The notes under the pieces are model-generated. The model worked only from the letters and a program-made list of their open reading frames with translations, did not search any database and had not been told where the DNA came from. DNA of 62,664 nucleotides, counting the filler, from Circinaria calcarea (lineage: Eukaryota), in the NCBI GenBank assembly GCA_051942165.1. It is 9 parts of 9 records of this genome, joined end to end, with 100 filler letters (N's around TTAATTAATTAA, not from the genome) between each part and the next. Parts side by side here need not be neighbours in the genome. Positions count along the whole stretch, not along the records: positions 1 to 6,895 come from JAVECS010001464.1; 8 more parts are not named here. One strand, given 5' to 3'. Numbering within the stretch: position 1 is the first letter of the stretch; each line of letters starts with the position of its first letter. Of the stretch, positions 1 through 6,895 are shown one piece after another. The position numbers and the translations under genes are program-made.

Positions 1-188
1 GATACTGTTTGTATGAATGAACTCCCATGATTGCACATTAAGGCTGAAAGGCTTCTGGTACAGAGGCCGCCTCCGGTATCAGAAGGCTAGAGTGATTCAG
101 TATTGTTTCTGCCTACCAGTCTCGCTGCTGATGAAAAGTTCCTTTCTATTTAGAGCAGATCGAGAGAGCATCATCTACCTCCCCCATC

Positions 189-2492
189 TCACCCATAGAA
201 GCGCCCACCATTATGGCCGTTGGCAACCTTAGTCGTACCGTTACTGAGCGGCATGCGCTGTTCGGTTAAGCGATTCCAGACCTCCAGAATTTCTGCGCGC
301 CGCGCTGGCAACATAGAGTATTGTAAGCTATATAAATTCTTACGATGGATGGGTGGTATGAATTGGCCCGTGGCTAGATACAATACCACACTCGGTGACA
401 TGTAATGCCTCCGAATGCGTTGGGCAAGTTGGAAATATTGGTCAAAAATGGCTCGTAGAGATAACGGCACCGACTATTGCAGCACATTAACATAGCTAAA
501 GCCATACATAACCAAGAGAAACGGACCTTGAGTATTATGTACGAGACTGGAGGAATCTCGTTTATCTGAATAGAATGCAATGTAACACAGGGGGTATCGA
601 GCAGTTCAAAACAAACGCCACCTGGATTAACATGAGTAAGAGTTCTTTCCGCTACTACGGGAATGACTCACCAGGTAGACGCCGCGAGTCTTTCAATCGA
701 AGCATCAATGCGAAAAGTGGAAAGTGATTGAGACACGCCAGCAAGGTGTCCAACGCAGCCTTTAGCGTGATGATCACCATTCTCGCGGATGCGAAAGTAA
801 GGTAAAACACGAAAACTGTTGGTAAGAGGAAGAATAAGAGGGTGAATAGGATCGTCCCTAACAGTAATTGATCAAGATCATAGTCACACGAGTCGATCCG
901 ATTCCGCAACACATTATGCTTCTTGCCGCGAAAGAGATGGAAAAGCGAGATGAGGATGGTCCACTGCCAGTGGAAGATCCGAGCCGATGCTACATAGAAG
1001 GAGTAGATGTGGATCGTCAAAAGCGAGAGCAGATCTGAAAAGAGAGCTATTGGCATAGTGGCTCCTGCAAAGCTTGAGAAGCCGATGAAGTATATGATAT
1101 GGGGAAGAATCGGTCTAAAGTTATCAACGCAAGCTGTAGTCGTTAGCGCTTGAAATAGTACTGTATCAGCTGATCTAGAGAACGTACTGGACCAGTACTG
1201 AATGACCCAAAGAAAGAGACCTCCAAGAAAGTTGGCCAGTTCAGTATTCAGTTTCAGACCAGCCGGCCAATCCGTTAACCAAACGATTCTTTCTTGCAAC
1301 CCCACCAGTGTCCAGGCAGTTAATGCGGCATTGATCTGGGTTGCTACCAAGTCGGCGTTATCAATAATGTATGAGCCTAGGGCAATACCGATAATCACAT
1401 CATTCGCCACAAGCCAGAGACTGTTGTAGAAGCGGATATACTCGGGATGCCTGTCTGTTACACTTTCCCAGTCGTCTCGTCTCTTGCGCAATGTCGTGTA
1501 CTGGATTGGCCAATAGCAAAACTGTTGTAGGCGGATGTCGACCTGTTGAGCCGTCGCGGATATATCTTTTAACGCTGCAGCCTCTGGGCGAACGCGCCAA
1601 TCTAGGACGCGAAGAATCACTTCGGCGACAAAGCGATGGCATATCAACCCGATGATGAATGCTCTGGTCAATACCGGATAGACCCATGCTGTAATGACCT
1701 GCCATATGCGGAAAACCGCATAATCCCAGATCGTGGTAGCAGATTCCACCACTCTCTCACTGACACTCAAAGTTCGCCGCTGTCTGGGCCCTATCACGCT
1801 AATATTTTTCAACAGCAACTGCTCGAGTTCAAGTGAAGAATTGATCTGGACAAGAATATGAGAGAGTGCTTCTTTCTGCGCGGGTGCATTCATAACCACG
1901 GAATGTAAGCGAAGTTTGTCGATCAGTCGTGACTTCGAGTCTATGTGAGTTTCTGTAGCATGCGATATACCTCCATTGACGGATGATGACGGTATACTGC
2001 CCAGCGCTAAGGATATCGGCTCCAGGGACATGTATTGCATTTTCGTTGGAGAGGGCCGGTCGAATATAATGACTTGAACAGAGATTTCATGATCACTGCG
2101 GCAGAAAATCTGCGGCGAAGGTGATGAAGGACTAGTGTAGGCGTATAGTTTTGAATGGTCGAAGCTGCATGGCTTTGTTGGTGAGTTTGTGACGCCTAGG
2201 ACTTGCATCGATACTTTCCCACATAATCGAAATATCCGGTCAATTGGGTGTGGGCTGTTGCGGAATAGTGTACGAGCTCGAAGGGCATTTTCAATCCGAC
2301 GTGGCTAGGATTCGATGGTTAAAATTGTTCGGGAGGCCGTGAATGAGGGTACTCTACCTCAACATCTTCTAGTATCGAGACGACGAAGATATCTAAGTCA
2401 GAATTCCTCCACCCCACAATGGTGCCTTGTAGCTCACTTCGAGGTGCATCAGATGGCCAGAATACCCTCAAAAGCCCATCGGCACCGACCAT
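189..2492 (-). CDS. GPI1: GPI-GlcNAc transferase subunit Gpi1 (PIG-Q), multi-exon
   Basis: Starts MVGADGLLRVFWPSD...GTIVGWRNS at ATG 2492. Carries Gpi1 core motifs QQVDIRLQQFCYWP, YIRFYNSLWLVANDVIIG, WPAGLKLNTEL, FHLFRGKKHNVLRNRIDSCDYDLDQLLLGTILFT and LNHFPLFALMLRLKD. The last exon ends at stop 189. Confidence 0.93.
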
Positions 2493-2511
2493 ACTGACAT
2501 TGTCGTCACAG

Positions 2512-2901
2512 TCAGAACGACCCACGACGCCTCAACTGTTCTCGTGCCGATATACCGCCCTCAATAGATCTAGGATGCTGAAAGGTAATTCAGCAATCAA
2601 TCAGCATATAACAGTGAGAGTACCCAATACCAGCGTAGATTCTCTAGCTGCGACCCGCTCGACCGGTATGATGAAAAGTAAGAAGAATATCGAGAGTATG
2701 GCAAAACCTTTTGCTGCCCGAGTCTGTTCGTTCGTGAGCCTTTACGAGGACCCATGACTACGTTTGACAATGCAAACTTACGACAACACTATGATCCCAG
2801 GCGAAGATAGCAAGTTCGTACAGTCGTGTCACGAGATCCCAGCGCGCGGTAATATAGCCAGCAACAAAGATTCCAAGGGTGAGTACAGAGAAAGGGTGCA
2901 T
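2512..2901 (-). CDS. Small 92-aa spliced membrane protein immediately upstream of GPI1
   Basis: Exons 2901-2782, 2723-2631 and 2577-2512, separated by two phase-0 introns (GTAAGT..CAG and GTATTG..CAG). Spliced product: MHPFSVLTLGIFVAGYITARWDLVTRLYELAIFAWDHSVVTRAAKGFAILSIFFLLFIIPVERVAARESTLHPRSIEGGISAREQLRRRGSF*. Confidence 0.8.
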
Positions 2902-4041
2902 TAATGGGGGTCTTGTGTTCTCTACATCGACTGCAGATAGTGAACTGGTAGTTCGGGAGTAATTGTTCAATGTAGACTGTCGCTGAGAAAATGGAAAGAT
3001 TGATGAAGACAACCAGAAGACGGGTAGATTTCCAGAGCTATCTGATTTTTACCGCATACTCTCTGATCCCTTGGTGTCTATCAAATCCATCGGATAGAGT
3101 TTGTCGGAATAATGTTTGCAGCGTAGCCTCATCATCCAAGATCTACGACATGGGGCTGATGGACATGGTGAGAAAAACAAGCTTTCTCGGCTGCGCTAAT
3201 GATACTCTATTCCATTGTTGACACGCGGTTCCCGCATTCCGTACATACCCTTATCTTGCTGGGTAAGGTACCTATCCAACAAGACAGGAGATGCTTCACT
3301 ATGGGACAATGAACAATGGCCAGAGGTGGAGCTGTCAGCTTGCATCTCACTTGAGTTGACTGTTCTAAAATTCAGAGCCCTATGAAGTCTTGAAGGGGTG
3401 TCACAGGATCACAGAAACTTGGCTTCACGGCCGCCTCATATGCTCTATATCTACTTCCTTTGTATTGTCTCTCGCCTCCTCGATCATCTTGTCTATCCCT
3501 CGGTCTTTCAAGGCTTTCTGAGAAACTGTCAACTAAATTGATGAAGGGTGAGTAAGTGAAAGAACAGACAGTCAAGCATGCCTGGTACTGCTTGAACAGC
3601 GGTTCGCACTCATCGGTTGAAGCGTTACCCCGTAGGAATTCTATCTCTTTTTCAGCACGGGGCGACGGCGAAAGGTATCATTCGGTAGATCTGACTTTCA
3701 CTGTACCACTTTAGAAAGCAGCTGTCATAACGTCTTGTAAAACTTAGTAGATTTCTCCCTTGTAGATATTCTAAGGGGTCGATAATTTACGTACTCTTTG
3801 ACATCGTTGCATTCTGGTGCAGCTGATGCTGACATGCTGTGGTCGTTTCCTTTAAGTCACGAAAACGTGATCACCTTTGCTAAAATTGATCCCCGGGAGC
3901 TGAGGCTCTGATCGGCGGTAAACCTTATATTTGCCCGACCTCGCTCCGATATCGATATCCTTGCACACCTTATTTCGCAATTTTGAGATTTCGAGAGGAT
4001 GAGCTAACGTCTTCAAACAGCGTAGCAAGCACAACACCTAG

Positions 4042-6699
4042 ATGAATGCCGAAGGATTCAAGTCCGTCCAGGACGCCATATCGGCTTGTCTAGTCGATAC
4101 TACGCGAACAGCAGGCCAGGTTGCCGCAGAGGATCTTGCGTTCCAGCGCTCATCCAATCCATCGGTGGCGCACTTGCTTGATAGGCAAAATGCACGCCTC
4201 CTAAACCTCGCGCAGAAACTGATCAGCAATGCCGCGTCAGGAAGTGGAGTCGCGGTCCCTCGGCTTTTGGACGCGGATGCGGTAGATGAACATTGGAGAG
4301 GAGTCGTGGATGTTGTGGACAACCTATTGGAGAAGGCAGATGCCTGCTTGGATGAGTATACTGGGGTTATCAAACGTCTGAGTCCTTCTCGAAGGGAGGA
4401 CCCGACATCCCGCCCTGCTCTACGAAAACCGAGACTAGGTCTTGCCTACCGGGACAAGGATCTTCCAAAGCCCCAATTGCTGTTCAATAACATTCCTACA
4501 AATGATGAAGCTGCAGCATTCAAGCCATTACTACGTACAAAGCCTCATGCAACAGTGCCTCTTGAACATAGTCTGGGACCAACAGTATCCGAAGATGGTT
4601 TCAAGCAGTATGACACTCAAGTTCATTTGACTATCTGAATCAATCTACCACGATGAAGAAACTGATTCGCACTTTTTAGTTACAAGCATCCCTATGAGAG
4701 TGAAATTATACAATCTTCCTACCCCTCCTCAGTCTACGAAAAAGCCGATCCTATCCCATACCTTCCTTTCGATTCCACTGAAGCTGTTTTTGTTGATACC
4801 TTCGAGGGTGTAATGTCTATGCTTGCAGAGTTAAAAACCGCAAAGGAGATAGCGGTCGACCTAGAGCACCATGATACGCATTCGTATAGCGGTCTGGTGT
4901 CGCTAATGCAAATCAGTACGAGGGACAAAGACTGGGTGGTAGATACGCTTAAACCTTGGAGAGAAGATCTCCAGATTCTGAACGAGGTTCTCGCAGACCC
5001 CGGTATACTCAAGGCACGTACACCGAAAGGGCAAAATCTTTGTTCTATATGCTAAAATTAATTTCTAGGTTTTTCATGGGGCAACTTCTGATATGGTCTG
5101 GCTGCAAAGAGACCTCGGCCTTTACGTTGTTGGCTTGTTCGACACGTATCATGCTTCACACTCCTTGGGCTACCCAAAACATAGTCTAGCCTCACTCCTC
5201 CATAAGTTTGCGAATTTTGACGCGCAGAAGAAGTATCAGACGGCGGACTGGCGGATACGGTTTGCTAAGTTCGGACACATTTCCTTGTGCCGCTGCTAAT
5301 TTGTTTCTCTTGTAGCCCACTTCCCGAGGAAATGTTCAAGTATGCTCGTTCAGACACACACTTTCTTCTTTATGTCTATGACAACATGCGCAACGAACTA
5401 ATCGAAAAGTCCAAGGATGACCAGTCGGATGGTAACTTGATTGACGTCGTATTAGAGAACTCCAAGAAGGAGAGCCTGCAGCGATATGAGCGACCGTTTT
5501 ACGATGCGGAACGTGGGACGGGGGCCAACGGCTGGTACTATATGCTAATGCGAACACCGGGTCTATTTACAAATGAACAATTCGCTGTCTTCCGAGCGAC
5601 TCATCAATGGAGGGACAGTCTTGCCCGACAAGAAGACGAAAACGTTCACGTGATTATGCCCAAGGCCGTCTTATTTAATATTGCTAGAGAGATGCCTGTG
5701 GACATGCCTACGTTGCTTGGGTGCTCCCGCCCGGTATCTGAACCGTTGCGTTTGCATATCGAGGAACTACTCGAGGTAATCAAACAAGCTAAAGCTCGGG
5801 GGCGACAAGAGCCAGACTCGAAGGAGTTTATGAAGTCTTATCCACCGAATGTTGAACAAGCTATAGGAAGCACTTTCCAGGGTCGATATCATCCGACACG
5901 GAATCCTCCCACCGTGCAAGCATCAGATTCTACTCGGATTGGACAAACCGCTATCTCCGTCCGGTCTGGCACATCTCGCTTTTGGGGAACGACAGCTGGC
6001 ACCAGCTCGTTGCATCCTCCCAAGGGAAAGGAAACAGATCTGCTAATGCGGGAAATGCGACTTGCAATTCCACTCCCCCAGCTTAGCGCTCAAGTCATCG
6101 GCATTGTAAGTAGCAGCGATAGAGCCGACATCGCTACGACCCTTGCAGAAGCTCCCACTCGTGCTGAGCATCAGTACACTAAAGACCGGAAGCCTGTGGA
6201 GAAGAGTGTCTTCGTTATCAAAGAATTAGGAGGGTCTCGCAAACGAAAGGCCGCAGAACTAGAGGAGGCCCAACATCCTGTTCCATCCATGCCCTCGGGG
6301 TCGGGAGGAGACAGCGTTCGGGCTTCTGTCGGTCATGAAGACGATGCGGATGCATCGGCCTTTTCAGGGACCGCAGAACAAGCAGCCATAGAAAAGGCTG
6401 AACAAAAGGCCGAACGGAAGGCCGAGCGGAAGGCGCAGAAAAGGGTTGAGAAGTCGCACCGGAAGAGGCAAGAAACGAAGCAGATCAATGGTTTAAACGA
6501 AAATGGGGCACACGTTGGGGAAGAAGAAGCATTCGATTATGGGAGTGCTCCTTCGGTGCTTCATGCGACGCGCGACAACCATGATCGGAAAGGACCCAAG
6601 AAAGCATTTGATCCGTACTCCAAGTCATTGGATGCTCCTAAAGGCATGAGGCAGTCCAGAAAGGAGATTGCAGGCAAGAGCTTCACATTCAAGAGCTGA
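4042..6699 (+). CDS. RRP6: Nuclear exosome 3'-5' exoribonuclease Rrp6, multi-exon
   Basis: PMC2NT-like N-terminus. DEDDy exonuclease motifs [43 protein letters not shown] and [18 protein letters not shown] motif [13 protein letters not shown]. Confidence 0.95.
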
Positions 6700-6895
6700 G
6701 ATTAGAGCCTGTATCGGGGGGCATTTCCGTCCTTGGTGGATCCCCGAAAAGTATAACGATGATTCTAGAGCATGCATCAAGCACATAGATGTTGCTCTTG
6801 CAAGACGCCCTGATGTACACGGCGCCACCCGTGCCATAGGCTAATCCCGTCCCTTGTTACCTCCACCGCAGAGGATCGGCCATTGTGTGTGGCAT

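Follow-up and report, generated by a model that had tools for sequence, protein, structure and literature searches.

For the fungal cell wall, synthesis of glycosylphosphatidylinositol (GPI) anchors is indispensable, and it forms a target area for antifungals. What is listed for filamentous fungi as the subunits of the first enzyme of this pathway, the GPI N-acetylglucosaminyltransferase (GPI-GnT), has been borrowed from yeast and mammals. DPM2/Yil102c-A is a regulatory subunit common to dolichol-phosphate mannose (DPM) synthase and GPI-GnT. In human PYURF–PIGY, the downstream open reading frame (ORF) is reportedly reached by leaky scanning, a result ascribed to Murakami et al. in 2005. The composition of GPI-GnT, small subunits included, is set out in passages of PMC3184424 and PMC7125958, and passages of the latter and of PMC7728079 present DPM2/Yil102c-A as a small hydrophobic accessory protein that modulates the enzyme. 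PYURF–PIGY itself is named, in a passage of PMC13303939, among the characterised bicistronic human transcripts. In ascomycetes, read-through polycistronic transcripts have been reported from Iso-Seq data for Fusarium graminearum (bioRxiv 10.1101/2021.11.08.467853) and Zymoseptoria tritici (10.1101/2023.04.26.537486), according to parts of the two preprints. Here, we describe a locus of Circinaria calcarea (assembly GCA_051942165.1) in which a small ORF of 92 codons is followed directly by GPI1. The locus lies within the first of nine joined parts (positions 1 to 6,895, from JAVECS010001464.1) of a stretch of 62,664 nucleotides (nt), filler included, the whole of which is called the window. An earlier note on this DNA had proposed that the two ORFs share an mRNA and had pointed to PYURF–PIGY as precedent, which PMC13303939 bears out in the passage cited.

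The locus is probably a bicistronic transcription unit, encoding two proteins and conserved across the Pezizomycotina. When metagenome contigs were scanned, 220 relatives were confirmed, from which 80 loci (L001-L080) were retained; a set of distinct sequences with less than 95% nucleotide identity comprises 50 members, window included, and 47 of these reach the GPI1 ATG. The start of GPI1 follows the small-ORF stop in 75/75 loci with sufficient downstream DNA, the other 5 of the 80 being records that end at most 80 nt past the small ORF. The spacer between the two measures 6-63 nt (median 20), and no more than 32 nt in 46/47 distinct sequences, a size that speaks indirectly against a separate promoter or poly(A) site between the cistrons. 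Depending on the lineage, the small ORF stands in relative frame 0, 1 or 2 to GPI1, and its stop codon may be TAG, TGA or TAA; the presence of all three frames together with a varying stop codon makes a conserved read-through, frameshift or spliced fusion impossible. Across these loci, the small ORF and GPI1 are tightly and universally linked, and the linkage would predate the split between Orbiliomycetes and Pezizomycetes. The synteny and spacing that the earlier note had wanted checked are thus found throughout.

At the protein level, the codon patterns show that the small ORF is a genuine, conserved gene under strong purifying selection. An intact ORF of 91-93 amino acids (aa) was reconstructed in 79/80 metagenome loci, the only failure (L006) running off the end of its contig; the ATG of L078 lies one codon further upstream. 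When 12 annotated 92-aa proteins were compared they aligned without gaps, with 56/92 columns invariant, residues 1-42 and the tail almost fixed and the second hydrophobic helix variable. Across the 46 distinct 92-codon sequences used for codon-usage analysis, six synonymous codons are found at each of the invariant residues L23, L86, R74, R88 and R89, the invariant residues of the tail take 4-6 synonymous codons each, and third-position entropy in the tail is no lower than elsewhere in the ORF. As the amino acids are fixed and the codons free, conservation acts on the protein and not on an RNA element, and the peptide conservation for which the earlier note had called is evident. A reinitiation RNA element hidden within the invariant tail was considered and rejected, synonymous sites there varying as much as elsewhere. 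Purifying selection acts on the protein products of both ORFs, as a bicistronic mRNA for two proteins would require.

A search with the 40-aa peptide of exon 1 returned 1010 proteins at E up to 10, and the 120 listed are 90-100% identical over the peptide; these listed matches include many models of 92 aa that belong to named Eurotio-, Dothideo-, Leotio- and Sordariomycetes. The gene had been described as hidden, and in many Pezizomycotina it is already annotated, so that uncharacterised is the better word. A search with a divergent member adds further named species, among them Orbilia (Orbiliomycetes) and Morchella (Pezizomycetes). Among the listed matches of both protein searches there was no name from outside the Pezizomycotina; the family spans this subphylum and, as far as seen here, is specific to it. 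Introns interrupt the small ORF of relatives at only two positions, both in phase 0, after codons 40 and 71; 27 of the rebuilt loci have none, 11 have one and 41 have two, the first position being unoccupied in some of the one-intron lineages as well as in the intronless ones, and intronless versions occur on genomic contigs (L007, on a 328-kb contig, L008, L015 and L019). The occurrence of 0, 1 or 2 introns at two fixed positions indicates repeated intron loss across lineages.

Evidence for a shared mRNA comes from two metagenome contigs that are fully spliced counterparts of genomic contigs in the same set. Contig L029 (2669 nt) is identical to genomic contig L042 at 99.8-100%, minus three introns, one from the small ORF and two from GPI1; against L044 the first two of these removals are visible, the L044 record stopping before the third. 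The contig extends from 177 nt 5' of the small-ORF ATG to past the GPI1 stop, and keeps both the small-ORF stop and a 20-nt spacer. Similarly, contig L051 has four introns removed in comparison with L033, L034 and L036, and retains the stop and spacer. Spliced contigs carrying both ORFs with an intact spacer are as expected of a mature bicistronic mRNA; the match is found in two relatives at the level of assembled contigs, and assemblies can merge overlapping transcripts. Positions 1-114 of L051 have no match in its genomic twins, and the join falls inside codon 15 without an AG, making the first 14 residues foreign; an alternative 5' exon was rejected here on account of the missing AG, and the contig is probably an assembly chimera at this end. 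Other intronless contigs of transcript size (L010, L011, L022, L028 and others) were excluded from the RNA evidence because intronless genomic versions exist.

The contexts of the two start codons provide a further line of evidence. At position −3 of the small-ORF AUG there is a pyrimidine in 50/50 distinct sequences (T in 43, as in the window, and C in 7), and C follows at +4 in 49/50, the stretch from −12 to −4 being variable and mainly purine. At the GPI1 AUG, position −3 is a purine in 42/47 (A in the window) and position −1 a pyrimidine in 47/47. Of the out-of-frame ATGs within the small ORF, 48/48 carry a pyrimidine at −3. A weak upstream start is thus combined with a stronger one downstream (50/50 versus 42/47), the arrangement looked for in leaky scanning, and the pattern fits leaky scanning on a bicistronic mRNA.

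Several observations weigh against a bicistronic mRNA translated in this way. While ATG is the second-rarest trinucleotide in the small ORF (it occurs 48 times, where the median is 217 and mononucleotide composition predicts 170), the 48 ATGs in 50 sequences compare with 55.7 +/- 5.7 in synonymous-codon shuffles, 10.7% of which are as low; ATG depletion was therefore rejected as an independent signature of leaky scanning, the amino-acid sequence accounting for the scarcity. An out-of-frame ATG is present at nt 82 of the small ORF in 35/50 sequences, further ATGs lie within 200 nt 5' of the small ORF, and in 25/47 sequences, the window included, an ATG in purine context stands exactly 8 nt before the GPI1 ATG. 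The last of these would catch scanning ribosomes, which leaves pure leaky scanning incomplete as a mechanism. On the RNA side, L029 and L051 are assemblies of short-read type, which can fuse overlapping transcripts of neighbouring genes, as parts of the Zymoseptoria preprint (bioRxiv 10.1101/2023.04.26.537486) describe for that fungus, and the transcript-type evidence consists of contigs from two relatives. The shared mRNA of the earlier note has accordingly gained tight linkage and two spliced contigs with both ORFs, a picture that contig merging can mimic.

It is on such grounds that two separate, overlapping monocistronic transcripts have to be considered, with the GPI1 start site within or just 5' of the small coding region and the 3' untranslated region of the small mRNA entering GPI1, in which case the tight spacing would reflect only genome compactness and the sharing of a promoter region. 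Overlapping same-strand neighbours are common in dense fungal genomes, and false bicistronic contigs are made by short-read assembly (parts of bioRxiv 10.1101/2023.04.26.537486). We nevertheless consider this arrangement unlikely: a gap of 6-32 nt in 46/47 lineages would put the GPI1 promoter and start inside near-invariant coding sequence or its introns, and in the genomic loci L007, L008, L015 and L019 there are no introns to hold them; the unbroken run of −3 pyrimidines at the upstream AUG would be pointless unless ribosomes must pass it; and the spliced contigs span the junction. It is highly improbable that the small-ORF exons form an N-terminal extension of Gpi1 through (alternative) splicing, as in automatic models of 740-800 aa. 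Fused models do exist in the databases (P0142, P0129, P0309, P0286 and P0337), and in the window a weak cryptic donor, CA/GTTGAG at 2536, with the AG at 2494 and a branch-like CTGAC before it, would on paper remove a 43-nt intron and fuse the ORFs in frame. These models are, however, mutually inconsistent in their joining point, the relative frame changes by lineage, the tail is invariant as protein right up to the stop codon with synonymous change free, both spliced contigs keep the stop and spacer, some lineages are without any small-ORF intron, and the N-terminus of GPI1 matches the start of unfused Gpi1 proteins; the cryptic 2536-2494 intron was rejected on the evidence of frame, tail and contigs. 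The earlier opinion that a fusion with GPI1 was unlikely is thereby strengthened, and its remark that the AG was out of frame is right for both phase-0 donors but not for the cryptic donor at 2536. Scarcely credible, finally, is a purely regulatory upstream ORF (uORF), at the extreme a chance ORF, in which the act of translation and not the product controls GPI1. Its position is uORF-like, and a weak upstream AUG with mini-uORFs is typical of translational control, but 56/92 residues are invariant across fungal classes while the codons are free, the length is held at 91-93 aa in the 79 rebuilt loci and the window, and a confident helical structure of membrane type is predicted. A uORF that works independently of its peptide would not be held to one sequence, and here nothing is better conserved than the amino-acid sequence, which excludes the purely regulatory alternative that the earlier note had entertained.

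Under the bicistronic interpretation, leaky scanning beyond the weak upstream AUG (−3 pyrimidine, +4 C) would be the main route of ribosomes to the GPI1 AUG, and short-range reinitiation or closely spaced starts around the −8 mini-uORF may contribute. This mini-uORF is 3-10 codons long in 19/25 of the relatives with the −8 ATG, and in several its stop overlaps the GPI1 AUG as ATGA. The sequence around it has the consensus A-T-G-T-T-G-A-C before the ATG, and lineages without the −8 ATG retain A at −8 (37/47) and TTGAC or CTGTC. Leaky scanning would set the ratio of microprotein to Gpi1, and the mRNA may be brought to the endoplasmic reticulum (ER) by this arrangement. Very short frames are also seen ahead of the small ORF: the window has a minimal start-stop pair, ATG then TAG, at 2922-2927 (minus strand), 26 nt 5' of the small-ORF ATG, and in several relatives, e.g. 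L029, a stop codon or the end of a 3-codon uORF lies right before that ATG.

The microprotein is predicted to be an ER-type membrane protein, in which an N-terminal hydrophobic, an amphipathic and a long hydrophobic helix are followed by a basic tail of cytosol type with RRRGSF at its end. The AlphaFold2 model, obtained with a 23-sequence alignment, has helices at residues 2-18, 21-36, 39-71 and 82-88 (mean predicted local distance difference test, pLDDT, 82.5; predicted template modelling score, pTM, 0.47), and hydropathy identifies residues ~1-18 and 43-63 as membrane-type. Model and hydropathy both agree with the two hydrophobic segments and basic tail that had been read from the sequence. 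When 12 members were compared with Pfam-A by hmmscan at E up to 10, 0 families matched, a sequence profile search of the PDB at E up to 10 gave 0 matches, and Foldseek found no match in the PDB at E up to 0.001. VIA-align in wide mode gave only generic helical matches, the best with Z 6.2 and a root-mean-square deviation of 9.0 over 89 residues, a range common for helical models, and in the ESM Atlas only the family's own clusters appeared, auto-named ‘pig-Q’, with 159 and 58 members. By sequence, the microprotein does not belong to the PIG-Y/Eri1, DPM2 or Gpi1 families, and the profile comparison with PIG-Y/Eri1/DPM2 suggested in the earlier note yielded no similarity of sequence or fold in the Pfam, PDB and fold searches.

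Considering what such a protein might do, it is quite possible, though we would stop short of calling it probable, that the microprotein works with Gpi1 as a GPI-GnT partner. This is suggested by the ancient cis-linkage, the small-membrane-subunit character of the protein and the precedent of small subunits and bicistronic PIGY. The microprotein may act in or on the GPI-GnT complex. In a more ambitious and rather doubtful version, it would be a new core or regulatory subunit of fungal GPI-GnT, the Pezizomycotina counterpart of Eri1/PIG-Y, assembled with Gpi1 co-translationally and at a fixed ratio from one ER-targeted mRNA, with the invariant RRRGSF-COOH serving as a phospho-switch. The C-terminal RRRGSF is reminiscent of a basophilic-kinase site (protein kinase A type, RRxS) adjoining an arginine-based ER-retention motif and a C-terminal 14-3-3-type motif, which we offer as no more than a lead.

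The locus has also left its mark on protein databases. Stand-alone 92-aa proteins are often named ‘PIG-Q’ or ‘phosphatidylinositol glycan, class Q’, and otherwise hypothetical protein. The Gpi1 domain PF05024 is found in 0/12 members of the microprotein family, and none of the 120 listed has an entry in the precomputed Pfam column. Fused gene models are the most likely source of the name. Fused database proteins of 657-797 aa (those given above and P0148) disagree on where the two ORFs join, placing the junction behind exon 1, behind exon 2 or within exon 3, and the P0148 model also takes in the upstream MDM35-like gene; we regard the fused models as artefacts of gene prediction. The locus thus explains a recurrent annotation error, both the ‘PIG-Q’ names of 92-aa proteins and the spurious N-terminal extensions on Gpi1 models of 740-800 aa.

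The features of the locus in the window are collected below. Sequence reading and translation give a small ORF of three exons and 92 codons at 2901-2512 on the minus strand, and the three exons and two phase-0 introns delimited in the earlier note proved correct to the base, as did the 19-nt gap and the difference in frame between the TGA at 2514-2512 and the GPI1 ATG at 2492-2490. Upstream of this ATG the GPI1 frame is shut by a TGA at 2534-2532, the stop-to-stop ORF starting at 2531, and a single AG, at 2495-2494, lies between the two; both the stop and the lone AG had been noted before and are present. The identity of the downstream gene is well supported: the N-terminus encoded by GPI1 exon 1 lines up with the start of annotated Gpi1 proteins (M..GLLR.FWP), this exon and the long second one are, in translation, 63-73% identical to proteins named Gpi1 or PIG-Q among the 120 matches listed, and Pfam PF05024 is present in 120/120 of these. 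The closest GPI1 matches (~70%, among the matches listed) are lichen-forming ascomycetes, which places the window in a member of the Pezizomycotina.

Coordinates of the small ORF–GPI1 locus in the window
Feature	Positions	Strand	Details
Small ORF exon 1	2782..2901	-	ATG 2901-2899; 40 codons; encodes helix 1 and the amphipathic helix 2, a nearly invariant portion
Intron 1	2724..2781	-	58 nt; GTAAGT...CAG; phase 0, after codon 40
Small ORF exon 2	2631..2723	-	31 codons; hydrophobic helix 3 / second transmembrane segment (TM2)
Intron 2	2578..2630	-	53 nt; GTATTG...CAG; phase 0, after codon 71
Small ORF exon 3	2512..2577	-	21 codons and TGA 2514-2512; encodes invariant tail HPR....G.SAREQL(R/K)RRGSF
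Intercistronic spacer	2493..2511	-	19 nt
Mini-uORF	2468..2500	-	ATG 2500-2498; 10 codons and stop; out of frame, overlaps GPI1 start
GPI1 exon 1	2358..2492	-	ATG 2492-2490; 45 codons; different frame from small ORF
Remaining GPI1 exons	189..2304	-	long exon from 2304 to ~672, further exons to stop 191-189

The next upstream gene on the same strand (window ~3425-3835, minus strand) appears to encode the small twin-Cx9C protein Mdm35/TRIAP1, and a same-strand relative of it lies 600-970 nt 5' of the small ORF in 13/29 distinct loci with at least 1500 nt of upstream sequence. Beyond this gene, the window has divergently oriented ORFs on the plus strand at 4042-5055 (4042-4638 and 4666-5055), which presumably resemble a gene for an exosome Rrp6-type 3'-5' exonuclease.

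The microprotein is conserved more strongly than most known GPI-GnT subunits, making it a concrete candidate for a missing component or regulator of the enzyme. If the bicistronic interpretation is true, few protein-coding bicistronic units of fungi would be as old or as uniformly conserved as this locus, and it would offer a natural system for leaky scanning and short-range reinitiation. No description of this arrangement or of the protein was found in the literature searched, subscription journals and preprint supplements lying outside the search. In the main texts of both Iso-Seq preprints, there was no mention of GPI. The Fusarium screen, according to part of its text (bioRxiv 10.1101/2021.11.08.467853), required ORFs of 100 aa, a cut-off at which a 92-aa cistron would be missed.

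The ascomycete Iso-Seq read-throughs resemble the unit proposed here in having two same-strand ORFs on one RNA in a filamentous ascomycete. They differ in being, according to parts of the preprints, mostly rare or stage-specific and formed by genes with separate transcripts as well, whereas the spacing here appears to leave no room for an independent unit and would have been conserved since the origin of the subphylum. Like DPM2/Yil102c-A, the microprotein is small and hydrophobic, but it has no sequence match to it, with 0 Pfam families at E up to 10. Eri1 of yeast and PIG-Y of mammals share with it the character of a small predicted membrane protein with two hydrophobic helices and a genetic tie to the first GPI step; the microprotein differs from these in possessing one more helix, which is amphipathic, and a basic C-terminal tail that is invariant, in its far stronger conservation and in its length of 92 aa, compared with a presumed ~70, and 0/12 members match the PIG-Y Pfam family at E up to 10.

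PYURF–PIGY provides the closest comparison, in that one mRNA (as proposed here) would carry two conserved ORFs, one of which encodes a GPI-GnT subunit. In the human transcript, PreY is upstream and PIG-Y downstream, whereas here the large Gpi1/PIG-Q (~700 aa) is encoded downstream and the microprotein upstream; no similarity of the microprotein to either PreY or PIG-Y was detected, just 6-63 nt separate the two cistrons, and the range is the Pezizomycotina and not animals. By this analogy, the small ORF and GPI1 would be best filed as a eukaryotic bicistronic unit of microprotein and main protein, in the manner of PYURF–PIGY.

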